From positions 43,870-107,869 of the forward strand of contig CALUHO010000006.1 of the NCBI GenBank assembly GCA_944320465.1: a stretch of 64,000 nucleotides of DNA, given 5' to 3'. Position numbers and translations under genes: made by a program. How positions within the stretch are numbered: position 1 is the stretch's first letter; the number at the start of each line of letters is the position of its first letter. The notes beneath the pieces are model-generated. The model was not told the origin of the DNA, made no database searches, and saw only the letters and a program-made list of their open reading frames with translations. Below, in pieces: positions 8,116 to 41,862 of the stretch. Source of the stretch: an uncultured Bacteroidales bacterium. Lineage in GTDB: Bacteria; Bacteroidota; Bacteroidia; Bacteroidales; P3.

Positions 8116-9612
8116 CTAACAGTGCATGAAGCGTTTGACTAATTCTTCCATCTTCGCCGGATTCTTGGCGACTTCTTCGCGAAGGCCCTTGTCCTTGAAT
8201 TCCTTGAGCGAATTGATCAAACCGTCGATCAAACCCTTGCTGAACACGCCGTATTCTTCGTAAACAGAACGCTGGGCCTGCAGGCAATCGGCCGAATCCT
8301 CGCAGCAGACAGGCAGCTGGTGGTATTTTTTTGCCTTTTCCTTGTTTTCATCGCTGAAGATGTTCACATCCACATAGTTGTCGGCAGCGAACTGCAAAGC
8401 GTCCTTCATTTCGAAACCATGACGGGCCGCCACGCAGAGACCGGCCACCAGCAGATAGATATTGGCCGAACCGTCCGGAGCCCGGAATTCCGCCGTCTGC
8501 TTGTTGGAATAATCCGGAGCCAGCTTGGCTTCCTTCGGGTTGGCATCCGCCGCCATGTTCTTGGTGGTTTCCCAGCCCAGCGGCACGCGTACCAGAGCCG
8601 AACGGTTGCGGTCGCCCCAGCAGATATTGGTAGGAGCTTCCTGATGAGGCACCAGACGGAAATACGACATAGGGTTGGTATTGCCGAATGCGGTCAGCGA
8701 AGCTGCCAGATCGAGGTAGCCGGCGATAGCAGTCTTGGCCACGTCCGAAAGCTTGTGTCCGGCATCGAGCATCTGGTTCTTGCCATCTTTCATGATAGCG
8801 GTATGGATATGCATCCCGCTGCCGGCCTTGCCCACAGTAATCTTGGGCGAGAAGGTCACCAAGAGGCCATGCTGGTAAGCCATCGTACGCAGAATCCACT
8901 TGGCGATAATCAACTGGTCGGCAGCATCTTCGAGCGGGCAAGGCAGGAATTCCACTTCGTTCTGCTCGTAGTTCTTGCCGTCCTGGCTGAAGTTGCCCAC
9001 TTCGGAGTGTCCGTATTTGATGCGGCAGCCGCAAGAGGCCATGGCCAGCATCGCTTCCTTGCGGAAATCCTCGAATTTGGTGAAAGGAGAGGATTCGTGG
9101 TAACCGCGCTGGTCATCGGCTTGGAACAGCGTATCTTCCTCGCCTACCACGTAATATTCCAGCTCGCCCATGCACCAGAACTCGTAACCGGTCTTTTCCT
9201 TCATCACCTCGCCGGCACGGCGCATCACGTAAGCCGGGTCGCTTTCAAACGGATTCCCGTCCTTGTCGTAATAGGAGCAAAGCAGGTCCAAGGTGGGGAT
9301 TTCGGCAAAAGGATTCAGGTAAGCGGTGCGGTAGCGAGGAATCACGTACAGGTCGCTCGCGCCGGCATCCAGGTTCTTGAACAGGCTTGAACCGTCCACC
9401 CGTTCGCCGCAGCTGAGGATGGTCTTCACATAATCCAGATCGTTGACCACGAAGTTGAGGGTCTTCAGACGGCCGTCTCCCGCCACGTAGCGGAAGTTGA
9501 CCATCTCGATCTGGTTTTCCTCGATGTAACGGAGGATGTCTTCTTTCGTGAATTCAGAAGCAGGCTTCTGAAGAAACTGCACCAGAGGGTGCGGGTTCAT
9601 TGAAATGCTCAT
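8116..9612 (-). CDS. glnA: Glutamine synthetase (about 500 aa Bacteroidetes GlnA-type)
   Basis: A beta-grasp N-terminal domain and a catalytic domain with KYGHSEVG...NEVEF, KAGSGMHIH and NRSALVRVP motifs. Confidence 0.85.
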   Translation of the reverse strand: MSISMNPHPLVQFLQKPASEFTKEDILRYIEENQIEMVNFRYVAGDGRLKTLNFVVNDLDYVKTILSCGERVDGSSLFKNLDAGASDLYVIPRYRTAYLNPFAEIPTLDLLCSYYDKDGNPFESDPAYVMRRAGEVMKEKTGYEFWCMGELEYYVVGEEDTLFQADDQRGYHESSPFTKFEDFRKEAMLAMASCGCRIKYGHSEVGNFSQDGKNYEQNEVEFLPCPLEDAADQLIIAKWILRTMAYQHGLLVTFSPKITVGKAGSGMHIHTAIMKDGKNQMLDAGHKLSDVAKTAIAGYLDLAASLTAFGNTNPMSYFRLVPHQEAPTNICWGDRNRSALVRVPLGWETTKNMAADANPKEAKLAPDYSNKQTAEFRAPDGSANIYLLVAGLCVAARHGFEMKDALQFAADNYVDVNIFSDENKEKAKKYHQLPVCCEDSADCLQAQRSVYEEYGVFSKGLIDGLINSLKEFKDKGLREEVAKNPAKMEELVKRFMHC

Positions 9613-9857
9613 ATCTTTTGTTTTTTATTTCAAGGGAAGCAAGACACTTACGCCGTTTCGCCACAGCCAACTACCGCTACAGGCAAAAAAAGCCCGTGAA
9701 GGCAACCCTAAATGCCTTCACGGTGATTACAATGCCAAAGAAATTCGACCTTTTCGTTCCATCGCCGCCTATCCTTCAGCAATACCGCAATGCAAAGATA
9801 GCCATTTTTCCAATACGCAAACCTGATAGAAAATTCGTTATCTTTGATCGCTTCGCA

Positions 9858-10098
9858 CCGAAGATAGGATGCGTCCCGGCAGAGCTCAAGCAAGGGATTG
9901 GCTTGGCTCTGCGCTCGACTTTCGCTATCTTTGGCTGTCGCCGAAGACTAGGATGCGTCTCGGCAGAGCAAATCGTGCAAGCTCGTTTGCTCTGCGCTCG
10001 ACTTTCGCTATCTTTGGCTGTCGCCGAAGATAGGATGCGTCTCGGCAGAGCAAATCGTGCAAGCCCGTTTGCTCTGCGCTCGACTTTCGCTATCTTTG
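9858..10098 (+). repeat. Tandem array, about 2.9 x 83 bp; the two complete units each carry a hairpin plus a complete promoter motif
   Basis: CCGAAGA(T/C)TAGGATGCGTC recurs at 9858, 9941 and 10024. The units contain a GCAGAGCAAA...TTTGCTCTGC stem-loop. They also carry TTTG-19 nt-TATCTTTG (9986-10016 and 10068-10098) facing cca. Confidence 0.85.
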
Positions 10099-10175
10099 TA
10101 AACTCGAGGCAATGTCATGGAAAGCAAAAATCGAAAACCCGCCTTCCATGCACCTTTCGAACTTGATAATACAAA

Positions 10176-11627
10176 ATGAACCTGAAAGACAAACTTCTTC
10201 ATCCAATATTCCCGTTAATCCGGCATATCGCCGAGCGAGAAGCCATCCCCGTCTATGTGGTAGGCGGATATGTACGAGACTTGATAATCAACCGTCCGTC
10301 AAACGACATAGACTGCACTGTCATGGGCGACGGCATTTGCCTAGGACGCGAAACCTGCCAGGAAATAGGACTCAGGACAGGCTCTCCCCCCTCCTTGCAA
10401 GAGTTCAAGCAATTCGGCACATGCAAATTCCAATACGAGACCACAGAAATCGAATTTGTGGGCATGCGGAAGGAAACGTACACACAGGGATCGCGCAAAC
10501 CCCATGTAGAAGCAGGAACCCTGGAAGACGACCTGCACAGGAGAGATTTCAGTATCAATGCAATGGCGGTATCGCTAAATAAGGATGGCTATGGTGAGCT
10601 GATCGACCCCTTCAATGGGACAGAAGACTTGGAACGGCAAATAATCCGAAGCCATCGGGATCCCGACCAAAGTTTTGTTGAAGACCCTTTGCGCATGCTC
10701 CGGGCTATCCGTTTCGCATCACAGCTATATTTTGACATAGACCCGGACACTTTCGATGCAATTGTACACAATGCAAACGAAATCAAGAATTTGTCAACAG
10801 AACGCATCACGGAAGAATTGAACAAGCTGATTCTGTCGCCCAAGCCTTCCTACGGTTTCAAACTGCTGGATGCCGCCGGCTTGCTAAAGATGTTCTTCCC
10901 GGAACTGGTGGCACTCAAAGGTGTGGAAACCAGGAATGGAAAAGCCCACAAGGACAACTTCGAGCATACGTTGGAAGTCTTGGACCATGTGGCTTACGCC
11001 GGCGGCGGGCTTTGGCTTCGCTGGGCGGCGCTGCTGCACGATATAGCCAAACCGAAAACCAAACATTTCGAAGAGCCTAAAGGTTGGACATTCCATGCAC
11101 ACGAATACATAGGAGCCAAGATGGTACCGGGCATTTTCAAACGATTCAAACTGCCTCTTGACGACAATATGCGTTTTGTCCAGAAAATGGTCGAGCTGCA
11201 TTTGCGGCCCATCATCCTGGCTGAAGACATCGTGACCGATTCGGCTGTCCGCCGACTGCTTTTTGAAGCCGGAGACGACATAGGCAGCCTGATGATGCTG
11301 GCAAAAGCAGACATCACCTCCAAAAACAGGGAAAAAGTAGCGCGGTACCGCAATAACTTCATTGTTGTGGAACGCAAACTGAAAGAAATTGAAGAAAAGG
11401 ATCGAATCCGGAACTTCCAACCGCCTGTTTCGGGTCAGGATATCATGGAATACTTTGCTATCCCTCCCTGCCGGGAAGTAGGTCTGATCAAAGATCAACT
11501 CAAGGATGCAATCTTGGACGGAGTCATTGGCAATGACCGGCAAGAAGCTTGGGACATGATGCTCCGCTTGGGAGCAGAATTGGGGCTGAAAGCACCGGAA
11601 CCTACATTGAAAGCACCGGAAGCATGA
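10176..11627 (+). CDS. cca: CCA-adding tRNA nucleotidyltransferase / poly(A) polymerase family protein with HD domain
   Basis: N-terminal VYVVGGYVRDLII...NDIDC polymerase-beta motif, RDFSINAMA, and an HD region (LLHDIAKP). Confidence 0.85.
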   Translation: MNLKDKLLHPIFPLIRHIAEREAIPVYVVGGYVRDLIINRPSNDIDCTVMGDGICLGRETCQEIGLRTGSPPSLQEFKQFGTCKFQYETTEIEFVGMRKETYTQGSRKPHVEAGTLEDDLHRRDFSINAMAVSLNKDGYGELIDPFNGTEDLERQIIRSHRDPDQSFVEDPLRMLRAIRFASQLYFDIDPDTFDAIVHNANEIKNLSTERITEELNKLILSPKPSYGFKLLDAAGLLKMFFPELVALKGVETRNGKAHKDNFEHTLEVLDHVAYAGGGLWLRWAALLHDIAKPKTKHFEEPKGWTFHAHEYIGAKMVPGIFKRFKLPLDDNMRFVQKMVELHLRPIILAEDIVTDSAVRRLLFEAGDDIGSLMMLAKADITSKNREKVARYRNNFIVVERKLKEIEEKDRIRNFQPPVSGQDIMEYFAIPPCREVGLIKDQLKDAILDGVIGNDRQEAWDMMLRLGAELGLKAPEPTLKAPEA

Positions 11628-12484
11628 AGACATTGAAAGTCTTGGAAGGCCCGACAGCGGTCGGGAAAACGGCTCTGGCCATCGAATGGGCTTTGGCGCA
11701 CAAGACCGAAATCGTATCGGCAGACTCGCGGCAGTTCTACCGGGAACTCGACATCGGCGTGGCACGCCCCAGCCAGGAAGAACTGGCAAGCGTCCCACAT
11801 CATTTCATTGCCTGCAAAAGCATTGAAGAGTATTACAGCGTATCCCGGTACGAACAGGAGGCGATGGCCTTGCTGGAAGAACTGTTCAAGACACACGATG
11901 TAATAATTCTAACTGGAGGATCAGGACTGTATGTCAATGCCTTGTGCAATGGAATCGACGACCTTCCCGACCCGGCTCCGGAATTGCGCGAATCATTGAA
12001 GAAACAACTGGCCGAAGAAGGAATAGAGTCTTTACAACAAGATCTAAAAAAACTGGATCCAGTCTTTTACGAGCAAATTGACTTGTGCAATTCTGTCCGC
12101 TTGCGCCGGGCATTGGAAGTCTGCATCACCACCGGAAAACCGTTTTCATCCTTGCGGACGGCCCCACGGAAACAAAGGCCGTTCCGGATAGAACGCTATG
12201 CGCTGAACCGGCCCAAAGAAGATCTCCATGAAAGAATCAACCTACGGGTGGACTTGATGATGGAAGCCGGTCTCTTGGACGAAGCAAGGAAACTGCGGCC
12301 CAAAGCGGGACTGAACGCTCTCCAGACTGTCGGTTACCGGGAACTTTTTGAATATTTCGATGGCCGGATTCCTTTGGAACAAGCCATCACCGATATCAAG
12401 ACTCACACGCGCCGCTATGCAAAACGGCAGCTGACCTGGTTGCGCAAGCAAGACGGAATCCAATGGATTACCCCACCATCCTAA
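11624..12484 (+). CDS. miaA: tRNA dimethylallyltransferase MiaA
   Basis: MKTLKVLEGPTAVGKTALAIEWA P-loop, SADSRQFYRELDIGVARP and KRQLTWLRK. Its start ATG overlaps the cca stop (ATGA at 11624-11627). The track ORF starting at 11549 is an upstream extension. Confidence 0.9.
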   Translation: MKTLKVLEGPTAVGKTALAIEWALAHKTEIVSADSRQFYRELDIGVARPSQEELASVPHHFIACKSIEEYYSVSRYEQEAMALLEELFKTHDVIILTGGSGLYVNALCNGIDDLPDPAPELRESLKKQLAEEGIESLQQDLKKLDPVFYEQIDLCNSVRLRRALEVCITTGKPFSSLRTAPRKQRPFRIERYALNRPKEDLHERINLRVDLMMEAGLLDEARKLRPKAGLNALQTVGYRELFEYFDGRIPLEQAITDIKTHTRRYAKRQLTWLRKQDGIQWITPPS

Positions 12485-12492
12485 GCCTGAAA

Positions 12493-12867
12493 CTATCCAT
12501 TGCCCTTAGTATTCTTCAACAATAAGACATGAAGGCTGACCCCAATAGCAATAGACATCAGCAAAAACTGCAGCCAGATACGCCCGGAAAGAAAATAGAA
12601 GATGCAAAACAGCATCGAAGCCCATAACAAGACCAACGTATACACTTTGACCTTGGCAGGAACAGTCTTATCTTCCATGTAATCTTTTATATACCGCCCC
12701 AGCTTCCGATGGCGCATCAGCCAGTCATAGAGTTTTTGCGAAGAACGAAGCCATAGCCAGGCCGTTAAAAGAAGAAAAGGAGTTGTGGGGAGAATCGGGA
12801 CGAAAATGCCGATGATACCCAGAACCAGGCTCAGGCTTCCCGCCGCAATATAGAGATTCTTCTTCAC
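12493..12867 (-). CDS. YbaN/DUF454 family inner-membrane protein
   Basis: GIIGIFVPILPTTPFLLLTAW motif, about 124 aa, 3-4 TM segments. Confidence 0.75.
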   Translation of the reverse strand: MKKNLYIAAGSLSLVLGIIGIFVPILPTTPFLLLTAWLWLRSSQKLYDWLMRHRKLGRYIKDYMEDKTVPAKVKVYTLVLLWASMLFCIFYFLSGRIWLQFLLMSIAIGVSLHVLLLKNTKGNG

Positions 12868-13011
12868 GACTCCTTGTTTTCAGATACCTTGGCAAAGAAT
12901 AATCGGCATCGCATCCCATCATGGATTTGCTTGTCAGCCCAACGGAAACTTCCACGGCCAGCAGAATCACCATCGAGCAAACAGCAGGCTCAGTCCGGAC
13001 TGGCTGGGGCC

Positions 13012-14586
13012 TTAGTGCCTGAAATGGCGGATGCCGGTGAATACCATTGCCAAGTCATGGGCATCGCAGTATTCAATGGACAGATTGTCCCGTATCGAGC
13101 CGCCGGGCTGGATAAAGGCCTTGATGCCTGCCTGATGCGAGATTTCCACGCAGTCGGCAAAGGGGAAGTAGGCATCGGAAGCCACCACTGCCCCGTTCAG
13201 GTCGAATCCGAAATGGCGGGCTTTGGCAATGGCTTGCTGCAAGGCATCCACGCGGGAGGTCTGCCCTATTCCCGAAGCCAGCATCTGGCGGTTCTTGGCA
13301 ATGACAATCGCGTTCGATTTACTGTGCTTTACGATACGGTTGGCAAATAGCATATCGCGGATTTCCGCTTCGGTGGCCAGTTTCTTGGTAACCGGCTTGA
13401 GAATGTCTGCACTTTCGGCCACCGTGTCCCGGTCTTGGACAAGCACCCCGTTGAGGCAGGAACGGATTATCGGATCCCCCATCTTGAAATCGTGGTATTG
13501 CAGAAGGACACGGTTCTTCTTGCTTTCCAACAGCTTCAAGGCTTCATCATCATAGGCGGGAGCCAGCAGGACTTCGAGGAATATCTTGTTGATTTCCTCT
13601 GCTGTTTCCTTGTCAATGGACTGGTTCGAAATCAGCACTCCGCCGAACGCGGAAACCGGATCGGCCGCCAAAGCATCCCGATAGGCTTCGAACAGGCTCG
13701 GACGGACGGCCAAGCCGCAAGCGTTGTTGTGCTTCAGTATAGCGAAAGCCGGTTCGGCCCCGAAATCCTTCATCAAAGCCAAGGCCGAATCGATATCGAG
13801 CAGGTTGTTGTAAGAAATCTCCTTGCCGTGCAGCTGCTTGAAACATTTGTCGAGCGAACCGTAGAAAGCACCTTTCTGATGCGGGTTCTCGCCATAGCGC
13901 AAAGGAGTGGCATTGGCTGGAATCCCGCCTAATTTCGGGCTTTCATCGTTCTGTTCCTTCTTCGGCTTGGACTCATTGCTGACAGAAGCCATGCCGGGAA
14001 CAGTCATGCAGAAGTAACTACCTATGGCTGTGTCGTAAGCGGCACTCTTACGGAAAGCGTAAGCGGCAAAACGGCGGCGTTCTTCCAAAGTAGTAGAACA
14101 GGATTTGGCAATAATAGCTGCAGCTTCCGCATAATGCTCCTTGGATGGCACAATCAGCACATCGTTGAAATTCTTGGCCCCGGCCCTAATCAAGGAAATC
14201 CCGCCTATGTCTATCTTCTCGATGATTTCGGCATCCGATGCCCCGGATGCAAGAGTCTCCTCAAAAGGATACAAGTCCACGACTACCATGTCGATTTCCG
14301 GAATCTTGTATTTCTGCATCGTAAGCCTGTCTTCCTCTAATTCGCGCCTGCCTAGGATGCCGCCCATCACGCCCGGATGCAGCGTTTTGACCCGACCGCC
14401 AAGAATGGACGGATACCCCGTAACCGATTCTACGGTTTCCACATCCAGTCCTTGTTGCTTCAGGAACTCATAAGTACCTCCTGTAGAGTAGATTTTAACA
14501 TGATTGGCCTTCAACACCTGAAGGATTTGCCCCAGTCCGTCCTTGTGATAGACCGAAATCAAAGCCGATTTGATAGTTTTTTCCAT
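13012..14586 (-). CDS. purH: Bifunctional AICAR formyltransferase / IMP cyclohydrolase PurH
   Basis: MEKTIKSALISVYHKDGL...GGRVKTLHP...IDIGGISLIRAGAKN...QPGGSIRD. I placed the start at Met33 of the track ORF, matching the conserved N-terminus. Confidence 0.9.
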   Translation of the reverse strand: MEKTIKSALISVYHKDGLGQILQVLKANHVKIYSTGGTYEFLKQQGLDVETVESVTGYPSILGGRVKTLHPGVMGGILGRRELEEDRLTMQKYKIPEIDMVVVDLYPFEETLASGASDAEIIEKIDIGGISLIRAGAKNFNDVLIVPSKEHYAEAAAIIAKSCSTTLEERRRFAAYAFRKSAAYDTAIGSYFCMTVPGMASVSNESKPKKEQNDESPKLGGIPANATPLRYGENPHQKGAFYGSLDKCFKQLHGKEISYNNLLDIDSALALMKDFGAEPAFAILKHNNACGLAVRPSLFEAYRDALAADPVSAFGGVLISNQSIDKETAEEINKIFLEVLLAPAYDDEALKLLESKKNRVLLQYHDFKMGDPIIRSCLNGVLVQDRDTVAESADILKPVTKKLATEAEIRDMLFANRIVKHSKSNAIVIAKNRQMLASGIGQTSRVDALQQAIAKARHFGFDLNGAVVASDAYFPFADCVEISHQAGIKAFIQPGGSIRDNLSIEYCDAHDLAMVFTGIRHFRH

Positions 14587-32203: not shown

Positions 32204-33745
32204 ATGTTGTACCCGATTGGAATCCAGAACTTTGAAAGCATCCGCGAAGGAGGCTACATCTATGTGGACAAGACCGATTTGATTCATCAGCTCGCCACCA
32301 CCGGCAAGTATTATATCTTGAGCCGCCCGCGCCGCTTCGGAAAGAGTCTTCTGGTCTCGACGATGGATGCCTATTTTCAAGGGAAAAAGGATCTATTCAA
32401 AGGATTGGCCATCGAGAAATTGGAAAAGGATTGGACGGAATATCCGGTATTGCATTTGGATCTGAGCGGGAAAGAATACAATAGCATGGAAGACCTCGAT
32501 GCCCGCTTGGACAGGCATCTGAGCCTTTGGGAGTCGAATTTTGAGGTCCGCAAACGCTATCCGATGGCCGATTCCCGTTTCTCTGACATCATTGATGCTG
32601 CTTATGAAAAGACCGGCAAGCCCGTCGTGATTCTGATTGACGAATACGACAAGCCGCTTCTGGACTCGGCGGGCCACGAAGCGCTCCGGGAGGCGTTCCG
32701 CAGCCGCCTGCAAGGCTTCTACAGCGTGATGAAGAGCCAGGACGGCAAACTCCGCTTCGGATTCCTCACCGGGGTCACCAAACTCGGCAAGCTCAGCATC
32801 TTCAGCGGACTCAACAACCTCAACGACATCTCGATGAACTTCCGTTACGCGGACATCTGTGGCATCTCGGAAAAAGACCTGCACGCCTACTTTGATGAAA
32901 GCGTCCGGGAAATGGCCGAAGCCAACGGATTGACCCAGGAGGAATGCTACGCCAAGCTGAAAGACTACTACGATGGTTACCATTTCTGCCGAAACAGTCC
33001 AGACATTTACAATCCTTTCAGTCTGCTGAATGCCTTGAACCAACAGGAATTCAACGATTACTGGTACGAAACCGGCACGCCCACCTTCGTGGTCAAGGCC
33101 CTGCGGAGCGGCAAGTTCAACTTGGAGGATTTGACCCTGGAAGGCGTTCCTGCCTCGGCTTTGGGCGGGGTCAATGCCGACGATTCCGACCCGGTCCCCG
33201 TCCTCTACCAGAGCGGCTACCTGACCATCCAGAGCTACGATGAACGCTGGCAGAGCTATACCTTGAAATATCCTAACAAGGAGGTGGAACGCGGCTTCAT
33301 GGGATGCCTGGCCAAGACCTACGTCCCTTCGGCCAGCTACAACAGCCCGTTCTCGGTGCGGAAGTTCGTGGAGGACTTCGAGAAGGGCGATGCCGAAAGC
33401 CTGATGAGACGCTTCGAGGCCTTCTTTGCCGATGCCGATTACGAGATTGTGGGCGATGCCGAGCTCTACTTCCAGAATACCATGTACGTCATGTGCAAAT
33501 TGATGGGGCAGTACACCCAAGTGGAACGCCACACCAGCAACGGCCGGATGGACATTCTGGTGCAGACCGACAAGTACGTTTATATCATGGAACTGAAGAT
33601 GGATGCCAGCGCGGACGAGGCCTTGCAGCAAATCGAGGACAAAGGCTATGCCAAGCCCTTTGCCGCCGACCCTCGCAAACTCTTCAAAATCGGGGTCGGC
33701 TTCTCCAGCGAAACGAGGCAGATCAAGGAGTGGAAAATGGAATAA
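32204..33745 (+). CDS. AAA-ATPase-like + PD-(D/E)XK (PDDEXK_9-type) family protein, paralog A
   Basis: MLYPIGIQNFESIREGGYIYVDKTDLIHQLATTGKYYILSRPRRFGKSLL (the N-terminus of the Bacteroides predicted AAA-ATPase family), Walker B ILIDEYDKPL, and a C-terminal RMDILVQTDKYVYIMELK nuclease motif. Confidence 0.85.
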   Translation: MLYPIGIQNFESIREGGYIYVDKTDLIHQLATTGKYYILSRPRRFGKSLLVSTMDAYFQGKKDLFKGLAIEKLEKDWTEYPVLHLDLSGKEYNSMEDLDARLDRHLSLWESNFEVRKRYPMADSRFSDIIDAAYEKTGKPVVILIDEYDKPLLDSAGHEALREAFRSRLQGFYSVMKSQDGKLRFGFLTGVTKLGKLSIFSGLNNLNDISMNFRYADICGISEKDLHAYFDESVREMAEANGLTQEECYAKLKDYYDGYHFCRNSPDIYNPFSLLNALNQQEFNDYWYETGTPTFVVKALRSGKFNLEDLTLEGVPASALGGVNADDSDPVPVLYQSGYLTIQSYDERWQSYTLKYPNKEVERGFMGCLAKTYVPSASYNSPFSVRKFVEDFEKGDAESLMRRFEAFFADADYEIVGDAELYFQNTMYVMCKLMGQYTQVERHTSNGRMDILVQTDKYVYIMELKMDASADEALQQIEDKGYAKPFAADPRKLFKIGVGFSSETRQIKEWKME

Positions 33746-33748
33746 CTT

Positions 33749-35128
33749 TTAGTTCGCCTGAGGAGCATCTGATGTTCCTTTCCCCTCCGGTTTGCCCCAC
33801 ACTTTTTCCGGAAAGTGATAACTTATCGTACACAAGGAATTCTTATCCTCTGTCACGCACGAAAGGAGCTTACCTTGGGATGCAATATCTTTCACTACAT
33901 CGCTGGAGGGATGCCCATACCGATTGATTTTTCCGTATGAAACAAAATAATGTTCCGTCTTGGCATTCAAATCCAACAGCTTAGAACTATATGAATCGGC
34001 GGACCCATGGTGGGGGACTTGCACCATATCAAGTTGCGGAAGGTCTGACTCCAATTTTGCACATATGATATCGAATACCCTTCTACGGCATCCTGCCAAA
34101 CCGTATTCTTGATTCATATCCATGTCGCCCAAATACAGACATCCTGCTTTCTCTTTAATCTTCTTCGTTTCCCTTATCCCCGTACAATTATTTATACCCA
34201 GACAATCTTCCACATTAAAGACGGCTTCAGTATCCACAGGACCGGAATAAAGCATCATGGAATCCTTATTCAGGTCTTCTTTTCTGTTTGTCCCCAATGA
34301 AACTTTTCCATAAATATCTTTCAATAAATCAAAGTTCTTTTTCGCGGTCCCAGCCTTTTCTTTCGATTGGGATGGCGCAGCAAGCACATCAAGTATTTCC
34401 TTATAACTTATTTTTAAATCAAGCAAATTCCGCAAACCGGATTGCTCTATTTCTGCTTTAAATGCTTTATACTTTTCTTCAACATTAAAATTGAAGGGAG
34501 TGTATTTCCACAGCGAATCTATACGTATGCTCTGAAAGCTACCGATTTCCTTTCCATTGTCCAAAGCTGTTAAATCAAATCCATTAACAGATACGTCCTC
34601 GTTATCATCAAATGCGCGAACATAAATTATACTGGTCTTATCACCGAATACATCTTCATAAGAGCACATGATACGATAAAGATTCTCCAATTTATCCTTT
34701 CTGACATTCCTACTGGCTATTTCATATAGGAAAAGGAGCCGACGTATTTCCAGATTTTTATATAAAAAAGGTAAAAAGACCCTCTTCACGTTATGTTTTT
34801 TCCGGAGACTTTCTATTCCATTGATGTGATCCTCATGAAGATGAGATATGAATAAGGCATCTATGTCTCCAGAATGCTGTCTATCAAATTCATTCCCTAC
34901 AACATCCTGTACTTTTTCCTTTTTTCTAGACCCACAATCATACACCACACAGGCTTTGCAAATATCCCCATCCATGAAACGTTCCGCATAGAACGAACCT
35001 TGACCGACAGGATACAGTTTCCTCTCCAGTCGCAATGGGCCATACTTTGACAAATTTCCTTCCGAATCGACTACCCAAAGGCTCATTCCTGTAAAAGCGT
35101 CTATCATTTTCAAATATTTTCCTTTCAT
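33749..35128 (-). CDS. MBL-fold metallo-hydrolase, ComEC-type signature (paralog 1; canonical HxHxDH)
   Basis: FISHLHEDHINGI (34826-34843), CLYLGDMD and LDMVQVPHHGS. No signal peptide or TM segment. The gene is AT-rich. The ORF is open to 35197, but that extension overlaps the upstream sorting-domain fragment, so the Met at 35128 or later is more likely. Confidence 0.75.
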   Translation of the reverse strand: MKGKYLKMIDAFTGMSLWVVDSEGNLSKYGPLRLERKLYPVGQGSFYAERFMDGDICKACVVYDCGSRKKEKVQDVVGNEFDRQHSGDIDALFISHLHEDHINGIESLRKKHNVKRVFLPFLYKNLEIRRLLFLYEIASRNVRKDKLENLYRIMCSYEDVFGDKTSIIYVRAFDDNEDVSVNGFDLTALDNGKEIGSFQSIRIDSLWKYTPFNFNVEEKYKAFKAEIEQSGLRNLLDLKISYKEILDVLAAPSQSKEKAGTAKKNFDLLKDIYGKVSLGTNRKEDLNKDSMMLYSGPVDTEAVFNVEDCLGINNCTGIRETKKIKEKAGCLYLGDMDMNQEYGLAGCRRRVFDIICAKLESDLPQLDMVQVPHHGSADSYSSKLLDLNAKTEHYFVSYGKINRYGHPSSDVVKDIASQGKLLSCVTEDKNSLCTISYHFPEKVWGKPEGKGTSDAPQAN

Positions 35129-35175
35129 AGACAATAAAAAAAAGGGTACTCTTCTTCGAGTACCCTGAAATTGTT

Positions 35176-35412
35176 CTACATCACTAAAAGTTTCCACGTG
35201 TTCCCACTGTTACGAACAATGTAAATCCCTGCTTGACGGACAGGAATCCTATTATTGCTTTGACCTTGGTAAACCAACGTACCCACGGTGGTGAAGACGG
35301 ACACTTCCCCGCTTAGACCTTCCGTGAAGATGGTTCTGTCTTTGGCATAAACCCGACCATGCGGTTCGCCTTCAATGGCCTCGTTGCCCACCGAAGGATC
35401 TCGGTCGGCCAC
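35176..35412 (-). pseudogene. Detached T9SS C-terminal sorting domain (belongs to the upstream LRR gene, out of frame)
   Basis: VYAKDRTIFTEGLSGEVSVFTTVGTLVYQGQSNNRIPVRQAGIYIVRNSGNTWKLLV matches the Por-secretion-tail pattern. It has no ATG (GTG sharing the G of the LRR TAG stop). Its frame is open back to about 35544. Confidence 0.8.
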
Positions 35413-36995
35413 TACGTGAACCAGACGGACGGCAGGTCTTCGTTTTCCCCTGCATAGGCCGTAGCATACGGATAGGTGACTTCCTGTTGAGTGAACGTCA
35501 GCATGTTCCCATTCAGAACTGCCCCATGCCAGACCAAAACCCTGTCAATATCGAAATTCGGCAAAGAAGAGAGGTCGAACGCATCGTTTCCATCCAAAAC
35601 TACATTTAAACGATTATCTTCTGCATACAGAACCCGCAAATTCGTGTTGGACGACAAATCAAGGCTCGTCAGCTGGTTTTGCTCGCAGGATAAGATCTCC
35701 AAGGCGGTGTCCTGGCTCACGTCCAGAGCCGTCAGCTGGTTAATGTGGCACCACAAAGTTATCAAGGCGGTGTTCTGGCTCACGTCCAGGCTCGTCAGAT
35801 AGTTGCTAGAACAGGTCAAGTCCGTCAAGGCGGTGCAGCCGCTCACGTCCAAGCTTGTCAGCTGGTTGTTGTCGCAATTCAAGTACGTCAAGGCGGTGTG
35901 CTGGCTCACGTCCAGAGCCGTCAGCTGGTTTTCATAGCAGAACAACTTCGTCAAGGCGGTGTTCTGGCTCACGTCCAAGGCCGTCAGCTGGTTTTGCTCG
36001 CAGGATAAGATCTCCAAGGCGGTGTTCTCGCTCACGTCCAAGGCCGTCAGCTGGTTTTGGCCGCAACCCAAGGACTCCAAGGCGGTGTTCTGGCTCACGT
36101 CCAAGGCCGTCAGCTGGTTGTTGTCGCAATTCAAGTACGTCAAGGCGGTGTTCTGGCTCACGTCCAAGGCCGTCAGCTGGTTAATGTGGCACCACAAAGT
36201 TATCAAGGCGGTGTTCTCGCTCACGTCCAGAGCCGTCAGATAGTTGCTAGAACAGGTCAAGTCCGTCAAGACGGTGCAGCTGCTCACGTCCAAGGCCGTC
36301 AGCCGGTTGCCGGAGCAAGCCAAGTCCATCAAGGCGGTGCAGCCGCTCACGTCCAAGCTCGTCAGCTGGTTCATCTCGCAATTCAAGCCCGTCAAAGCGG
36401 TGCAGCCGCTCAGATCCAGGCTCGTCAGCTGGTTTTCCCTGCAACCCAAGGACGTCAAGGCGGTGCAGTCGCTCAGATCCAGGCTCGTCAGCTGGTTTTC
36501 CCTGCAACCCAAGGACTCCAAGGCAGTGCAGCCGCTCAGATCCAGGCTCGTCAGCTGGTTTTGCTCGCAGGACAAGAACTCCAAGGCAGTGCAGCCGCTC
36601 ACGTCCAAGGCCGTCAGCTGGTTGTTGTCGCAATTCAAGTACGTCAAGGCGGTGCAGCCGCTCACGTCCAAGTCCGTCACCTGGCTGTTTTTGCATTCCA
36701 ATCTCTCCAAAGAAAAAAAGTACTTGATGCCTTCAAAACTTTCTATTGAACTGTTATAACCAAGAGTAAGGTCTTTCACCCTACCTGCTTCTGCGCTAGA
36801 TAATTCTCCGCTATCATTGCTGTCATAATTATTACTAACATACTGACGAAACACTTCGTCCGGAAAATGTTCCTCGTCAATCGGCACGGGGAAATCATCG
36901 TAGCCGGGAATCCAGCTTTGGGCATAACCCCAGCAAGTCAGGCCTTGCAGCATGATGCCGCATAGCAACAGGTAAAAGAATCGTAATGTCTTCAT
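35412..36995 (-). CDS. Leucine-rich repeat surface protein (BspA/internalin-like, 21-aa Cys-containing LRR), C-terminally truncated by frameshift
   Basis: Signal peptide MKTLRFFYLLLCGIMLQGLTCWGYAQS, then about 17 consecutive LTxLDVSxxTALxxLxCxxNQ units. The stop TAG is at 35414-35412, immediately before the sorting-domain fragment. Confidence 0.85.
   Translation of the reverse strand: MKTLRFFYLLLCGIMLQGLTCWGYAQSWIPGYDDFPVPIDEEHFPDEVFRQYVSNNYDSNDSGELSSAEAGRVKDLTLGYNSSIESFEGIKYFFSLERLECKNSQVTDLDVSGCTALTYLNCDNNQLTALDVSGCTALEFLSCEQNQLTSLDLSGCTALESLGCRENQLTSLDLSDCTALTSLGCRENQLTSLDLSGCTALTGLNCEMNQLTSLDVSGCTALMDLACSGNRLTALDVSSCTVLTDLTCSSNYLTALDVSENTALITLWCHINQLTALDVSQNTALTYLNCDNNQLTALDVSQNTALESLGCGQNQLTALDVSENTALEILSCEQNQLTALDVSQNTALTKLFCYENQLTALDVSQHTALTYLNCDNNQLTSLDVSGCTALTDLTCSSNYLTSLDVSQNTALITLWCHINQLTALDVSQDTALEILSCEQNQLTSLDLSSNTNLRVLYAEDNRLNVVLDGNDAFDLSSLPNFDIDRVLVWHGAVLNGNMLTFTQQEVTYPYATAYAGENEDLPSVWFT
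35610..36680. repeat. 63-bp tandem coding repeats (about 17 units) of the LRR gene
   Basis: GTCAGCTGGTT and GCTCACGTCCA recur with 63-bp periodicity. There is a higher-order duplication (units 7-9 resemble units 14-16). Confidence 0.9.
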
Positions 36996-36999
36996 TGTA

Positions 37000-38346
37000 T
37001 CACGTTTGTTTTTTTATTACATATCCTGTAGTATCCGGCTCTTCCGATATGCAAAGCAGCCGTTTCGGGCTTTTGAAATCAGCTGTAACCTGTGAATCAG
37101 GAAAAAAATGCTTTCCCTTGCCACAGCTCACAAGGTCCTTGCTATGCGACAGGAAATAATATTCCACATCCGGGTTCAATTCCTGCAATTCGTGATTATA
37201 GGAATTGACAGAACCATGATGCGGAACCTGAATCATATCCAGCTGTGGAAGCTCGGCCCGCAACCGTATCCGGATGGTGGAAAGAACATCCGTATTCACA
37301 AGATCCGCATCCCCAAGATACAAGCAGGCCGCATTCTTGCCTTGTTCCCATTTCATGCTATCAAGTTTTTCCCCTGCAACCCTGTCGCCCTCTTCCCGGC
37401 ACACAGTCAAGGAATCTTTTGCAAAAGATTCCACAGGGCCGGAATAAACCATCAATGAATTGGAGTTGAGCCTGCTCGGCTCTTTTGTTTCTCCAATCTG
37501 CCGGTAAATGCATTTGAGTGCCGAAATTTCCTTGGATCTGCAGCCACGAAAAACAGCCGAAACGATGTCGGGGAACTGTTTCAAGACAGGACATTCATCT
37601 ACTAGCTTCTTGAACAGCTTCGTCCGGTTTTTCTCATCGAAATTGAACGGGATGTATTTCCAGCAACATTTGTCCCCACCTTTATCAGAAAAGTTCACTC
37701 CGATGTTGATAGCTTGGAAACTTCCTATAATATCGCCTGTTTTGAATTCGGCCAAATTCTTGGGAGAAGCAGGATTAATATCGCCCGTTTCGGGGTCATA
37801 CGGCTCCACATAGAGGATTTTTGTATCCTTGCCCCAATATTCTTGCGGATTGTAAATCAAGCTGTGCAATGTCTGGATATCGTTTTCCTTGGTCTTGGAA
37901 GTGGTTTTTCCCAAGGCGAGAAGGTATTCCAGCTTTTTAGTGGTTTTGTCTTTCAGCAAGGGCAAAACCACGCACTTGACATCGTACTTCTTTTTCAATC
38001 GGGAAATCCCGCTGATATGGTCCTCATCCAAATGCGAAACGAACAGGATTTCTATCTCCTCTTTGGGAGGCCGTTTCCCTTTCGCCTTGGGCTTCGCCAT
38101 CGTAGCCCCTTGCGCGGTAAAGGCGGAATCGATGATGTTCTGCCACTGCTTGATGGCTTGTTTCGAGCCGCAGTCGTACACGACACGAATGATATCGCCG
38201 TTGAAACCGGTCAATTCTTCCGTATAGAACGCTCCATGCCCTACCGGGTGGATTGTCCGGGTCAGGAATGGAGTCATGCCTGCCGTGAAAAGTCCATTCA
38301 TGCCTACAGAACTATGGCCTTGTTTGTTCTCTTCCATTTCCATCAT
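37000..38346 (-). CDS. MBL-fold metallo-hydrolase, ComEC-type signature (paralog 2; HxDxDH variant)
   Basis: FVSHLDEDHISGI (38017-38034), WKYIPFNF, CLYLGDAD and LDMIQVPHHGS. These motifs are colinear with paralog 1, but overall similarity is low. Its stop is 4 nt before the LRR start codon. Confidence 0.75.
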   Translation of the reverse strand: MMEMEENKQGHSSVGMNGLFTAGMTPFLTRTIHPVGHGAFYTEELTGFNGDIIRVVYDCGSKQAIKQWQNIIDSAFTAQGATMAKPKAKGKRPPKEEIEILFVSHLDEDHISGISRLKKKYDVKCVVLPLLKDKTTKKLEYLLALGKTTSKTKENDIQTLHSLIYNPQEYWGKDTKILYVEPYDPETGDINPASPKNLAEFKTGDIIGSFQAINIGVNFSDKGGDKCCWKYIPFNFDEKNRTKLFKKLVDECPVLKQFPDIVSAVFRGCRSKEISALKCIYRQIGETKEPSRLNSNSLMVYSGPVESFAKDSLTVCREEGDRVAGEKLDSMKWEQGKNAACLYLGDADLVNTDVLSTIRIRLRAELPQLDMIQVPHHGSVNSYNHELQELNPDVEYYFLSHSKDLVSCGKGKHFFPDSQVTADFKSPKRLLCISEEPDTTGYVIKKQT

Positions 38347-38458
38347 ACATAAAAGATTCAGGTTTGTTCACGACAAAAGTCCCGCTCGCGAACAGCCGGT
38401 ATCCATGCTATCCGGAGGATGACTTCAACCGGAAACCACCTTGGGTTGCCGCGATTCT

Positions 38459-38646
38459 AAGTATCTCTTGGCAAGAGATACTTTTGTACCGGCAATCCTC
38501 AATAAAAGAACATCTTACATGGACACAAGATGCAATCTTATGTGCGGGAGTTGCCTAGAAAGAGATACTCCACTTGCCGGAAATGACGCAGTTCCAAAAA
38601 CTTTCGTACTTTTGTCACCGTCTTCAAGTATCTCTTGCCAAGAGAT
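38459..38646. promoter_or_regulatory. Candidate invertible promoter segment (inverton)
   Basis: A perfect 21-bp inverted repeat: ATCTCTTGGCAAGAGATACTT (38463-38483) and AAGTATCTCTTGCCAAGAGAT (38626-38646). It encloses 142 bp with two TACTTTTG (-7 TAnnTTTG) motifs on the + strand (38479-38486 and 38607-38614). It lies between the recombinase stop and the MBL2 start. Confidence 0.45.
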
Positions 38647-38657
38647 TTGCCAACCCC

Positions 38658-39911
38658 TCATATCCCGTTTATAATCATCCGGTTGGCTTCGTCCACTGCG
38701 TTCATGTCGAGGGCGGAAAGGTAGATCCGCGTGACCCTTTCCGAGGCATGTCCCAGGCCGTCGCTGATGACCGAAAGCGGAACCTCCTTGCTCTTGGCCA
38801 GGCTCGCCCACGAATGCCGCGCCACGTACATCGTCAGCGGCATCTTCAAGCCCAGCATCCGCCCTATCTCTTTCAGCCTCTGGTTCACCTTATACTGCAC
38901 GTTCCGGTAGGACGAACGGGCATGGGCTTCCCCATCGCGGATAATGGGCAGGAGGTAACCGTCCCCTTGGCCGGATTGCGCCCTCCCGCAACTTTCAGAC
39001 TCCTTGCTGTTCCGCTTCCGCCACCTTTCCTTGTTCCAAACGGCATCCTTGGCGACAGAATCCTCCCCGTCAGCCTCTGAAACCGGCTTCAAAAAACTTC
39101 GCGTCCGCCCGCTCCGGACTTCATCGCGGAATCCGCTGGCATCCCTTTTCCTATTGCAATCCGGCAACCGCCCATCGGGTACTCCGGCATCGCGGCGGGA
39201 AAGCCGCTTCCCTCCCCACCGTGGGGCGGCAGCCCTCATCGCCTCCGCGTTCCGCCATAAAGCTTCCAACATCTCCTGCATCCGTCCCTCCCAGCGGATG
39301 AACAGCGGCCTGCCCGTCTTGCGCCGCACGTAACACAGGATGCCCTCCTTCAAGTCGCTCCGCCGCAGCCCGGCCATGTCCGCGAACGCCATCCCCCGCG
39401 TGTAGAAGCTCAGCAGGAACAGGTTCCGGGCGTATTCCAAGTCGGGATGCCCGTCCAAATCCAACTTCCGGATGGCTCGCAAAGTGTTCCTGTCCACCGC
39501 CCGCTTGCACGTCTTGGCCACCCCGGTATAAACCTCCGCAAACGGGTCCTGCCGCGGCGCGGGGCAAAGTTTGGCCTTGACCGCCTTGCTGTAGGCCGAA
39601 CGCAGGTTGCGGAGGTAGAAGGAGGTGGTGTTGGGGCAGAGGCCGCCGGTCAGCAGGCAGTTCTCGTACCTCTGCATGAGGCGGCCTTCCATCTGACGTA
39701 AGCCGATGTCCTTGCCGCCGAGGAAGCGGGAGAAACTGTTAAAGGTGGTCCGCCATATCTCCGCGCGGCGTTGCCTGCCCTCCGAGCGGGCATCCTCCGC
39801 CAAAATTCCAAGCCAGCACAGCATCGTCTTGGGCTTGCCGCGTCTTCCTATGCCCGCAGCCCCGTTCCTGCCTCCCTGCCCTTCCCTGTTGCATCGTTTT
39901 TCCATCATCAT
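38658..39911 (-). CDS. Tyrosine site-specific recombinase (integrase/invertase family)
   Basis: Catalytic region LSFYTRGMAFADM (Arg), YVARHSWAS (His/Arg) and LGHASERVTRIYL (His, Tyr). The N-terminal SAM-like core-binding domain has TTSFYLRNLRSAYSKAV. An Arg-rich insert of about 95 aa lies at 38958-39251. Confidence 0.85.
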   Translation of the reverse strand: MMMEKRCNREGQGGRNGAAGIGRRGKPKTMLCWLGILAEDARSEGRQRRAEIWRTTFNSFSRFLGGKDIGLRQMEGRLMQRYENCLLTGGLCPNTTSFYLRNLRSAYSKAVKAKLCPAPRQDPFAEVYTGVAKTCKRAVDRNTLRAIRKLDLDGHPDLEYARNLFLLSFYTRGMAFADMAGLRRSDLKEGILCYVRRKTGRPLFIRWEGRMQEMLEALWRNAEAMRAAAPRWGGKRLSRRDAGVPDGRLPDCNRKRDASGFRDEVRSGRTRSFLKPVSEADGEDSVAKDAVWNKERWRKRNSKESESCGRAQSGQGDGYLLPIIRDGEAHARSSYRNVQYKVNQRLKEIGRMLGLKMPLTMYVARHSWASLAKSKEVPLSVISDGLGHASERVTRIYLSALDMNAVDEANRMIINGI

Positions 39912-40320
39912 GATTCATTGATTTTGAACGGCAAAGATTGGCAAGGATGCCGTCGGGCACAAGGGCATAGAAACACTTCTCGGATTTCTTGCATTTTGAG
40001 CATAGATGGTAAAAACCAAAACGAAAACCCTATCCGAGCGCAAGGCCGATTGTCCACCCCCTGGCATCGGCACTAAGACTCGGCAATCTAATGCAAGGTT
40101 CCAAATCCCCTCCCGCAAATACCATCGCGGCTCTTGCCTCAAACGGATATGAGGCTTATCCTTGAAAGCTTGCATTTCGATGCGGCATCACGGACAACAG
40201 ACCGGAAGCAAAGGGCGGCATTCCGAAAAAATGTTAATTTTGTCTGTTGACAAAGAATCTCGCATCCGACAGATGATGCGCTTTTCCTTAGCAAATCGCT
40301 GTTACGCAAAAAATCACGCC

Positions 40321-41862
40321 ATGCTGTACCCGATTGGAATCCAGAACTTTGAAAGCATCCGCCAAGGAGGCTACATCTATGTGGACAAGACCGATTTGAT
40401 TCATCAGCTCGCCACCACCGGCAAGTATTATTTCCTGAGCCGCCCGCGCCGCTTCGGGAAGAGCCTTCTGGTCTCGACGATGGAAGCCTATTTCCAAGGG
40501 GAAAAGGATCTATTCCAAGGATTGGCCATCGAGAATTTGGAAAAAGACTGGACGGAATACCCGGTGCTGCATTTGGATCTGAGCGGGAAAACCTACAACA
40601 AGGCCGAAGATTTGGATATGATTCTGGATGTGCATTTGTGCCAATGGGAAAAAGCAGTCGGCATGCAAACCCGGTATCCCGAACCCGATCTCCGGTTCCA
40701 AACCATCATTGACACCGCCTACGAAAAGACCGGCAGACCGGTGGCCATCCTGATAGACGAGTATGACAAGCCGCTTTTGGACTCGGCCGGCAACGAACCC
40801 CTCCGGGATGCTTACCGCAGCCGCCTGCAAGGCTTCTACAGCGTCATGAAGACCCGCGACAGAAAAATCCGCTTCGGCTTCCTGACCGGAATCACCAAAC
40901 TCGGCAAACTCAGCATCTTCAGCGGCCTCAACAACCTCAACGACATCTCGATGAACTTCCGTTACGCGGACATCTGCGGCATCTCCGAAAAAGACCTACA
41001 CGCCTATTTTGATGAAAGCGTCCATGAAATGGCCGAAGCCAACGGGATAAGCAAGGAAGAATGCTACGCCAAGCTGAAAGATTACTATGACGGATACCAT
41101 TTCTGCGAGGAATCCGAAGACATCTATAATCCTTTCAGCCTGCTCAATGCCCTCAGCGGTCAGCGGTTTCGCGATTATTGGTACGAGACCGGCACGCCCA
41201 CCTTCGTGGTCAAGGCTCTGAGGAGCGGCAAGTTCAATTTGGAAGACCTGACTCTGGAAGGAGTGCCTGTATCCGCCTTGGGCGGGGTCAATGCCGATGA
41301 TTCCGACCCAATCCCCGTTCTCTACCAAAGCGGCTACCTGACCATCCAGAGCTACGATGAACGCTGGGAACGTTACTCGTTGAAATACCCGAACAAGGAG
41401 GTAGAACGCGGCTTCATGGAGGGCTTGGCCAACATTTATGTCCCCTCGGTACGGTACAACAGCCCGTTCGATGTGCGGAAGTTCGTGGAGGATTTCGAGA
41501 GAGGCGATTCCGAAAGCCTGATGAGACGCTTCGAGGCCTTCTTTGCCGATGCCGATTACGAAATCGTGGGCGATGCCGAGCTCTATTTCCAGAATACCAT
41601 GTATGTGATGTGTAAACTCATGGGGCAATACACCCAAGTGGAACGGCATACCAGCAACGGGCGGATGGACATCGTGGTACAGACCGACAAATACGTCTAT
41701 ATCATGGAACTGAAAATGGATGCCAGCGCGGACGAGGCCTTAAAGCAAATCGAGGACAAAGGCTATGCCAAACCCTTTGCCGCCGACCCTCGCAAACTCT
41801 TCAAAATCGGGGTCGGCTTCTCCAGCGAAACGAGGCAGATCAAGGAGTGGCGTGTGATATAA
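40321..41862 (+). CDS. AAA-ATPase-like + PD-(D/E)XK (PDDEXK_9-type) family protein, paralog B
   Basis: Same length (513 aa) and colinear with paralog A. By hand alignment there are about 16 mismatches in the first about 270 nt. The track ORF from 40162 is an upstream extension. Confidence 0.85.
   Translation: MLYPIGIQNFESIRQGGYIYVDKTDLIHQLATTGKYYFLSRPRRFGKSLLVSTMEAYFQGEKDLFQGLAIENLEKDWTEYPVLHLDLSGKTYNKAEDLDMILDVHLCQWEKAVGMQTRYPEPDLRFQTIIDTAYEKTGRPVAILIDEYDKPLLDSAGNEPLRDAYRSRLQGFYSVMKTRDRKIRFGFLTGITKLGKLSIFSGLNNLNDISMNFRYADICGISEKDLHAYFDESVHEMAEANGISKEECYAKLKDYYDGYHFCEESEDIYNPFSLLNALSGQRFRDYWYETGTPTFVVKALRSGKFNLEDLTLEGVPVSALGGVNADDSDPIPVLYQSGYLTIQSYDERWERYSLKYPNKEVERGFMEGLANIYVPSVRYNSPFDVRKFVEDFERGDSESLMRRFEAFFADADYEIVGDAELYFQNTMYVMCKLMGQYTQVERHTSNGRMDIVVQTDKYVYIMELKMDASADEALKQIEDKGYAKPFAADPRKLFKIGVGFSSETRQIKEWRVI

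Follow-up and report, generated by a model that had tools for sequence, protein, structure and literature searches.

In Bacteroides thetaiotaomicron, a tyrosine recombinase paired with an invertible promoter drives surface-layer (S-layer) lipoproteins and a restriction-endonuclease operon (Porter et al., 10.1101/521070). In these loci, which include the BT1927-type S-layer loci and the BT4014-13 locus, 17–18-nt imperfect palindromic repeats bound a short promoter segment, and the tyrosine recombinase lies directly upstream of it. The segment contains a near-consensus Bacteroides promoter and is often OFF in reference assemblies, and the cargo genes encode surface proteins or nucleases that have been tied to phage resistance. 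A locus of this layout is present in the DNA analyzed here, a stretch of 64,000 nt from an uncultured Bacteroidales bacterium (contig CALUHO010000006.1, positions 43,870 to 107,869; referred to as the window). An open reading frame (ORF) scan of the 64-kb window gave, in order on the minus strand, a tyrosine recombinase, an inverted-repeat pair, a gene for a protein of metallo-β-lactamase (MBL) fold (MBL2), a leucine-rich repeat (LRR) gene, a remnant of the sorting domain of the LRR protein, and a second MBL gene (MBL1). This is the gene set of the first-pass annotation of the window, and the repeat-flanked segment and the 4-nt gap that it listed were both found, the repeat being a perfect 21-nt pair and the gap reading TACA.

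The island resembles the B. thetaiotaomicron loci in the position of the recombinase, in its repeat arms, which fit the published description, in a near-consensus promoter that lies in the OFF orientation, and in cargo of the surface-protein or nuclease type (10.1101/521070). It differs from them in that the cargo comprises an uncharacterized ComEC-like MBL family and LRR proteins of the type IX secretion system (T9SS) type, not lipoprotein/OmpA pairs or restriction enzymes, and in that the host belongs to an uncultured chicken-gut genus. The earlier statement that the arrangement matches no named system did not hold for the switch, which is the standard Bacteroidales combination of tyrosine recombinase and invertible promoter (10.1101/521070) and has its repeat core in 21 other loci. 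In this locus the switch is of a known type and its cargo is of a new one: predicted cytoplasmic ComEC-like nucleases, whose nuclease or defense role is suggested by sequence and structure models, together with polymorphic surface LRR proteins.

The closest described relatives of the MBL proteins are the nuclease domain of ComEC, a metal-dependent DNase according to Silale et al. 2021 (cited in PMC12799240), and other ComEC-like MBLs, which are DNases (PMC12799240, PMC12642450). The defense MBLs HamM, Avs1a, MBL-type LmuA and CanC are protease-gated pro-nucleases (PMC12799240, PMC12642450). We consider it reasonably probable that the locus is an accessory phase-variable island in which the invertible promoter controls DNase-type MBLs and an independent surface LRR protein. 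The features of the switch and its cargo are as follows.

38658..39911, minus strand: tyrosine site-specific recombinase, with matches to Phage_int_SAM_5 (46.9 bits) and Phage_integrase (28.6 bits) in Pfam
38626..38646, no strand: inverted-repeat arm beside the recombinase, with the imperfect 17-nt palindrome ATCTCTTG-S-CAAGAGAT inside it
38607..38614, plus strand: Bacteroides-type -7 box TACTTTTG (TAnnTTTG), pointing to the recombinase and away from MBL2
38484..38625, no strand: invertible promoter segment, which in the window is oriented OFF
38463..38483, no strand: inverted-repeat arm beside MBL2 (repeat search)
37000..38346, minus strand: MBL2, soluble ComEC-like metallo-β-lactamase-fold protein, 448 aa, the first gene after the switch
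35412..36995, minus strand: surface-protein gene, 527 aa, with a Sec signal peptide and 21-aa (63-nt) cysteine-containing LRRs, truncated by a frameshift
35176..35412, minus strand: out-of-frame remnant of the C-terminal sorting domain of the LRR protein (T9SS type A-like), 78 aa, weak match to TIGR04183
35143..35166, minus strand: intrinsic-terminator-like hairpin with a T run, 9-bp stem with five G-C pairs, tail TTTTTTTATT, in the interval between the LRR gene and MBL1
33749..35107, minus strand: MBL1, paralogous ComEC-like MBL protein, 452 aa, the conserved 3' gene of the island

The invertible promoter

The two inverted-repeat arms are 21 nt each and 100% complementary, with 142 nt between them, and the whole element measures 184 bp. 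A 17-nt imperfect palindrome is present in both arms. The 15-nt core of the repeat, TCTCTTGSCAAGAGA, occurs twice in the 64 kb, where no occurrence is expected by chance, and is conserved in the related loci L001, L003–L008, L091–L097, L100 and L125 and in L104–L124. Every related MBL locus that was retrieved has the core, at equal spacing, after a homologous recombinase, and homologous recombinases adjoin the same repeat pair in many loci; the recombinase of the window is presumed to be the invertase of the adjoining promoter. Outside a charged insertion of 72–97 aa (aa 222–318), it is 56–62% identical to 328-aa homologues in L094. The insertion itself (window 38958–39248) is 97 aa long, charged and of low complexity, with a GC content of ~0.63, and measures 25 aa in the 328-aa homologues of L091 and L094.

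The recombinase and the repeat-flanked segment had been taken for a phase switch, and natural inversions show this directly: the segment occurs in both orientations in natural populations. In the window and L001, the 152–154-nt inner segment runs in reverse complement to its counterpart in L003–L008, with 83–88% identity when inverted compared with 63–66% in the same orientation (83% and 63%, respectively, for the window). In L091 and L093, which represent one locus with the same MBL protein in two samples, the inner segments are exact reverse complements and the right flank is 100% identical. The contigs L007, L092, L096 and L101 end at or inside the switch, as is expected when a population holds both orientations. 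The inversion would be carried out by the adjoining recombinase.

Between 38347 and 38657, the TAnnTTTG motif occurs on the plus strand only, at 38479 and 38607. The -7 box lies ~20 nt from one end of the segment and, by motif match, faces the MBL gene in L003–L008 and L091 and the recombinase in the window, L001 and L093–L095. In L003–L008 and L091 the end in question is the arm closest to the MBL, so that the direction of the box follows the orientation of the segment. Because the box in the window points away from MBL2, this copy of the switch is read as OFF. A σ70 promoter scan, the model of which is not relevant to Bacteroidales, gave no more matches than in shuffled sequence. The first ~35 codons of MBL2 (37000–38346) are near-identical, with one substitution, to those of the MBL gene in L001 (7998–9257), and the two proteins are 45% identical overall, suggesting that the switch and the 5' end of the MBL gene move or recombine as one unit.

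The same repeat core also occurs with other cargo. A scan of metagenome contigs found the repeat pair in 21 further loci (L104–L124), many of them from the human gut, with a spacing of ~170 nt, and a hidden Markov model of the recombinase matched the retrieved stretch in 11 of them. Their cargo includes capsule-like operons in which an initial NusG/UpxY-like gene precedes a glycosyltransferase, together with proteins of 1,288–1,752 aa that have no Pfam family; none of these 21 loci has an MBL or LRR gene. The type of switch is generic, and the combination of cargo is new; literature searches for MBL and LRR genes combined with an invertible promoter found nothing.

The ComEC-like proteins and their family

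MBL1 and MBL2 are 32% identical over ~440 aa (E = 8e-62) and, by this measure, are true paralogs. Both pass the threshold of Pfam Lactamase_B (22.7 bits), MBL1 with 35.1 bits and MBL2 with 32.2 bits. Residues Asp58, His105, Asp109, His110, Asp346, His376 and His377 are invariant in 21 sequences of the family, and the motifs that the first-pass annotation had listed are invariant family-wide. In the H105-x-D/H-x-D109-H110 motif, the position of the second His of HxHxDH holds Asp in MBL2, and MBL1 has the His. The AlphaFold2 model of MBL2 has a predicted local distance difference test score (pLDDT) of 78 and a predicted template-modeling score (pTM) of 0.85. Its best match in the PDB by Foldseek is the β-lactamase-like domain of ComEC (9ic4; E = 1.1e-8, template-modeling score 0.63 normalized to the target), and the family profile also matches ComEC structures first (five, E = 4e-6 to 1e-4), so the ComEC-type fold proposed earlier is best by structure and by profile alike. 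MBL1 and MBL2 are predicted to be cytoplasmic, metal-dependent phosphodiesterases of the ComEC nuclease type, and fold, motifs and gene neighborhood together make DNases acting on incoming or foreign DNA their most likely role.

The island MBLs share with the ComEC/Rec2 nuclease domain (9ic4) the C-terminal GD...HHGS block and the HxHxDH-type motif, but lack the competence (channel) domain, the OB fold and the transmembrane segments of ComEC. The maximum Kyte-Doolittle value in a 19-residue window is 0.83–0.89, with no hydrophobic segment in either protein, in agreement with the earlier statement that they are not channels. TIGR00361, the model for the true ComEC/Rec2 channel, matches only the C-terminal motif block and scores far below its cut-off of 190 bits, at 42 and 23 bits. 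An extra region relative to ComEC had been noted and is present, between motif 2 and the NxxS/GD block, but its size is ~155–180 residues rather than the 200–230 aa first estimated. It is predicted to be folded, with helices and strands and pLDDT mostly 80–95, and it belongs to the whole family because the profile matches run full length. The comparison of this region with β-CASP proteins was not borne out: there is no β-CASP match in Pfam, and CPSF73, RNase J and TTHA0252 match the N-terminal core only (E ≥ 0.004 in the fold search, ≥ 0.03 in the profile search).

Like the protease-gated MBL pro-nucleases, the island MBLs have a ComEC-related fold with insertions relative to ComEC, and in both cases the protein is encoded by a separate small gene in defense contexts. 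The insertions of the pro-nucleases are disordered gating loops that carry conserved cleavage sites and block the active site, whereas the insertion in the island MBLs is predicted to be folded. NCBIfam Avs1a gives 29–34 bits for the MBLs against a cut-off of 420. Protease gating was rejected as an explanation: neither the island nor the related cassettes contain a trypsin, caspase or subtilisin partner, and no protease family is among the 25 most frequent Pfam families of 131 neighbors of family genes.

The length of MBL1 required correction. It had been recognized as an MBL paralog, as confirmed here, with a length of ~460–482 aa depending on the start used. The GTG start that gives 482 aa would run through the terminator hairpin, which is also kept in L003. 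An ATG at 35107 gives 452 aa, the length in four of the 15 listed public gene calls of its protein cluster, including that of the representative. This ATG is the likely start, with another at 35128 (459 aa) also possible.

An exhaustive profile search found 23,905 representative proteins of the family at E ≤ 0.001 and at least 2,416 clusters (50% identity) at E ≤ 1e-30, nearly all of them stand-alone proteins of 350–400 aa. In a set of loci from one genome per species, the family spans many bacterial phyla and one metagenome-assembled genome labeled as Asgard archaeal, and it is single-copy in 74 of 75 loci, L089 having a further weak match. By simple count, the immediate neighbors are diverse, with many of defense type: AAA_21, ResIII, SMC_N, type I restriction-modification, LeoA, pAgo, DruE, mads and PDC-S06 genes. 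Among 131 immediate neighbors in 67 loci (Pfam and PADLOC census), there is no dominant partner gene, the commonest being AAA_21 with four. The Alistipes gene occupies one end of an integrated element; the Hymenobacter gene is plasmid-borne, next to a WYL regulator in a region that also has ThiF-JAB; and the Sulfurovum gene belongs to an insertion beside TPR-CHAT and HipA genes. Searches for phage copies gave no match, and those for plasmid copies gave one, that of Hymenobacter. The scattered phyla, the defense-type neighbors and the integrated-element and plasmid contexts fit a conflict-related, horizontally moving gene. The family is very large and uncharacterized, is found in defense-island and mobile-element contexts, and is outside PADLOC v2.

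The LRR protein and its relation to the MBL proteins

The LRR gene starts 4 nt (TACA) after the stop codon of MBL2. Its product has an N-terminal signal peptide, MKTLRFFYLLLCGIMLQGLTCWGYAQS (judged by sequence; peak of 2.04 in a 12-residue Kyte-Doolittle window), and matches Pfam LRR_4 with E = 6e-46; the gene contains 14 copies of the 63-nt period. The detachment of the sorting domain that the first-pass annotation had described was confirmed and is attributable to a 1-nt deletion that creates a stop codon, cacgTAGtggcc in the window compared with cacgTTGGtggcc in the intact allele of L003. The LRR proteins of L003, L001 and L094 are contiguous and in frame with the sorting domain. The assignment of this domain to the T9SS is less firm, as TIGR04183, its sole family match, is below the cut-off of 23 bits, with 15.8 bits (E = 0.01) for the window remnant and 12.5 bits for L003. 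Several close LRR homologues carry PF18962. In its 21-residue repeats with a conserved cysteine and its signal peptide, the protein is like Internalin-J-type LRR proteins and the T9SS LRR cargo of Bacteroidota, and its β-rich C-terminal domain resembles a T9SS type A sorting domain. It departs from them in scoring 286 bits for InlJ against a cut-off of 1700, in a C-terminal domain below the TIGR04183 cut-off and in the frameshift of the window copy. Literature searches found no known Internalin-J or T9SS LRR member reported in linkage with an MBL gene that an invertible promoter controls. The LRR protein is predicted to be an exported surface protein, an adhesin or antigen, and is probably anchored by the T9SS.

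The recombinase, the switch and an MBL gene occur together in at least five chromosomal contexts, with the following genes after the recombinase and switch.

Window and L003–L008: MBL, (188-aa protein), LRR, MBL
L001: MBL, LRR, LRR
L094: 109-aa protein, LRR, MBL, LRR
L097: 109-aa protein, MBL
L091: MBL, secreted 172-aa protein, Cys-rich 188-aa peptide, radical SAM enzyme, 332-aa protein

The gene order of the window recurs elsewhere, so the case that the first-pass annotation named as refuting it, three genes that never co-occur, does not apply. In a small neighbor-joining tree without support values, MBL1 and the other switch-linked MBLs group in a single clade, separate from stand-alone homologues of Alistipes and Porphyromonas; this suggests one old capture of the MBL by the switch followed by strong diversification. 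In the L091 gene group (9001–13545; also in L092), the Cys-rich 188-aa peptide has a twin-arginine-like leader, and the group has the appearance of a cluster for a ribosomally synthesized and post-translationally modified peptide under phase control.

In the proposed mechanism, the recombinase would invert the promoter element, and MBL2 would be co-transcribed with the LRR gene, 4 nt away, when the switch is ON. The hairpin terminator would attenuate transcription ahead of MBL1, which would be expressed only by read-through or from an unrecognized promoter of its own. MBL1 and MBL2 would cut incoming or foreign DNA in the cytoplasm, and the LRR protein would work at the surface independently of them, as the signal peptide on the LRR protein and its absence from the MBLs, the LRR genes without MBL and the switch-linked MBLs without LRR all suggest. 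The two types of gene may be co-regulated because both are costly, conflict-related and would gain from bet-hedging; surface layers and a restriction-endonuclease operon are both phase-varied in B. thetaiotaomicron (10.1101/521070). In this genome, the system appears to be silent twice over, with the promoter OFF and the LRR gene frameshifted. Of the readings offered earlier, that of anti-mobile-element nucleases beside a phase-variable adhesin fits best, with the changes that MBL2 is the first gene under the switch and MBL1 is behind a terminator.

Several results weigh against this reading. By fold, the second- to fourth-best matches of MBL2 are to the pneumococcal phosphorylcholine esterase Pce/CbpE (E = 3.7e-6 to 1.1e-4), with RNase Z also among the next, and some family members weakly match the cyclic-nucleotide phosphodiesterase Apyc1 (PF23023, precomputed; 7u2s, E = 0.007), so the substrate of the MBLs may not be DNA. 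The family is absent from PADLOC v2: no described system is matched, the MBLs give weak single-protein matches to LmuA, PDC-M48B, RTasMBL and Avs1a (E = 1e-4 to 3e-12, in the core motifs only), and the recombinase and flanking genes give none. Toxicity would be expected of an unregulated DNase in the cytoplasm, and no partner of the immunity, methylase or protease kind turned up for the MBLs, so that the model does not account for the sparing of self-DNA. There is no TAnnTTTG box for MBL1 between the terminator and its start codon. Finally, MBL and LRR genes are adjacent in three types of cassette, and LRR-MBL fusions exist, a combination at odds with full independence of the two proteins. If the MBLs are stand-alone DNases, how self-DNA is spared without a protease gate or methylase becomes a testable question; the phase switch may help by confining expression to a subpopulation.

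The matches to Pce/CbpE and Apyc1 suggest another possibility, that the MBLs are not nucleases but use their phosphodiesterase or esterase chemistry on a small molecule or envelope component, such as cyclic nucleotides or phosphocholine-type decorations, and remodel signaling or the surface together with the co-expressed surface proteins. The rest of the cargo under the switch consists of secreted or surface proteins, which is consistent with such a role. However, ComEC is the top match by fold and by profile, and the Apyc1 matches are limited to the N-terminal core. The MBLs also have no export signal, which puts envelope substrates out of reach, and the neighborhoods of the family are of the defense and mobile-element type, not of envelope biogenesis. 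We consider this role unlikely. Should the MBLs turn out to be ordinary hydrolases, the locus would still offer a clean natural case of an ON/OFF switch caught in both states in metagenomes.

The adjacency of MBL and LRR genes raises the further possibility that the two proteins constitute one module, similar to a minimal pattern-recognition receptor, in which the LRR is the recognition part and the ComEC-like MBL is the effector, fused in Campylobacterota and encoded by adjacent genes here. Fusions of an N-terminal LRR domain to the MBL in Campylobacterota-like organisms fall into at least four clusters that are mutually less than 50% identical (P0104, P0268, P0275 and P0338); anyone looking for LRR-based sensing in bacterial immunity has a concrete lead in them. 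Other points in favor of a module are that MBL and LRR genes adjoin in three types of cassette and of chromosomal context (window/L003, L001 and L094), that MBL and LRR alleles are exchanged jointly between strains while MBL1 stays constant, and that the gap between MBL2 and the LRR gene is only 4 nt. Yet the LRR protein has a Sec signal peptide and a C terminus similar to a sorting domain, and the MBLs have neither, which would place the two in different compartments. The fused LRRs are of another class, cytoplasmic and with 22–24-residue repeats as compared with the 21-residue cysteine-containing repeats of the cassette. An LRR neighbor or fusion was found in none of the 75 one-per-species genome loci (ORFs with ATG starts, with in-frame upstream extensions checked separately), and the switch-linked MBLs of L091 and L097 have no LRR gene. 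The LRR family is very large, and its members occur without an MBL, including the close relatives L126–L129. LRR linkage is limited to this clade of Bacteroidales and the cytoplasmic fusions of Campylobacterota, and a single module seems quite unlikely. The three-gene module proposed in the first-pass annotation is possible but weakened on the same grounds of compartment (exported LRR, cytoplasmic MBLs) and of separate occurrence (MBL without LRR in L091 and L097, LRR without MBL in L126–L129). It is likewise quite improbable that the ComEC-like family with its folded insertion is a new, widespread, protease-independent nuclease against mobile elements with the LRR as its recognition partner, that is, a minimal LRR-effector immune module.

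Fusions of a cytoplasmic N-terminal LRR domain to the MBL family within one ORF in Sulfurovum/Campylobacterota-like organisms are represented by L014 (6785–8716) and by P0104, P0107, P0110, P0117, P0268, P0275 and P0338; the fusion gene of L014 lies within an IDH gene that is split, and TPR-CHAT and HipA genes are beside it. In L128 (5094–11573), a close 767-aa LRR homologue without MBL is in a stretch similar to a defense island (WYL/WCX, HARE-HTH, DUF6339, NTP_transf_2 and PDDEXK_2).

A strain-variable island

By exact-sequence look-up, the host of the window is Candidatus Pullibacteroides excrementavium, a chicken-gut member of the Bacteroidales known from metagenome-assembled genomes. The extent of the island was obtained by BLASTN comparison with contigs that have an empty site. 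Alignment of the flanks of the contigs L098 and L099 with the window ends at 33745 on one side (98.1%) and resumes at 40162 on the other (96.3%).

33746..40161, no strand: strain-variable island, 6,416 nt, with 45 nt in its place at empty sites
32204..33745, plus strand: AAA-ATPase_like + PDDEXK_9 paralog (Pfam) at the left flank, 83–91% identical to its counterpart at the right flank, at a distance of 8,117 nt
40321..41862, plus strand: AAA-ATPase_like + PDDEXK_9 paralog (Pfam; BLASTN against empty-site contigs) at the right flank

Among 24 contigs, namely those read that share the identical neighboring MatE gene, ~14 have the empty site, with the two AAA-ATPase_like/PDDEXK_9 paralogs adjoining, and the others have the island. 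The island is accessory, present in some strains of the species and absent from others. Occupied sites also vary by strain. The switch-proximal MBL is 448 aa or 384 aa, in alleles that are ~35% identical; the product of the LRR gene is 527, 635, 893 or 1,219–1,236 aa; and some sites have an additional 188-aa membrane protein. The recombinase and MBL1 are near-constant among occupied sites, and MBL1 is ~99% conserved in L003–L008 despite the differing MBL and LRR alleles upstream.

Variation of this kind could also be expected of a decaying integrative mobile element, of which the recombinase would be the former integrase and the MBL and LRR genes passengers without a current role. In addition to the variable presence of the island among strains of one species, the frameshift in the LRR gene, the OFF promoter and the location between duplicated paralogs are in keeping with decay. 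But comparison with the empty site revealed no flanking direct repeats or att-like sites at the island junctions, and in every related locus the recombinase is paired with a conserved, inverting promoter element. The two MBL ORFs are undisrupted and keep every catalytic motif, intact LRR alleles and ON switches are found in other samples, and the same switch family drives capsule operons of a housekeeping type. We regard a decaying element as very improbable. The related suggestion in the first-pass annotation, of mobile-element remnants with MBL genes marking the ends, fails because one end of the island is the recombinase and flanking direct repeats are missing.

The AAA-ATPase_like + PDDEXK_9 paralogs that bracket the island are in tandem and adjoin directly at 11831–14969 in L098/L099. 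The cassette of L094 is likewise flanked by a gene of this family. With members at the window island, at the empty sites and at the L094 cassette, these genes may be a recombination hot spot.

Elsewhere in the window, upstream of an ORF at 10176–11627, an ~83-nt tandem repeat of three to four copies occupies 9839–10098 on the plus strand. No tRNA gene was found at 9839–10098, and each repeat unit contains the Bacteroides -7 box TATCTTTG.

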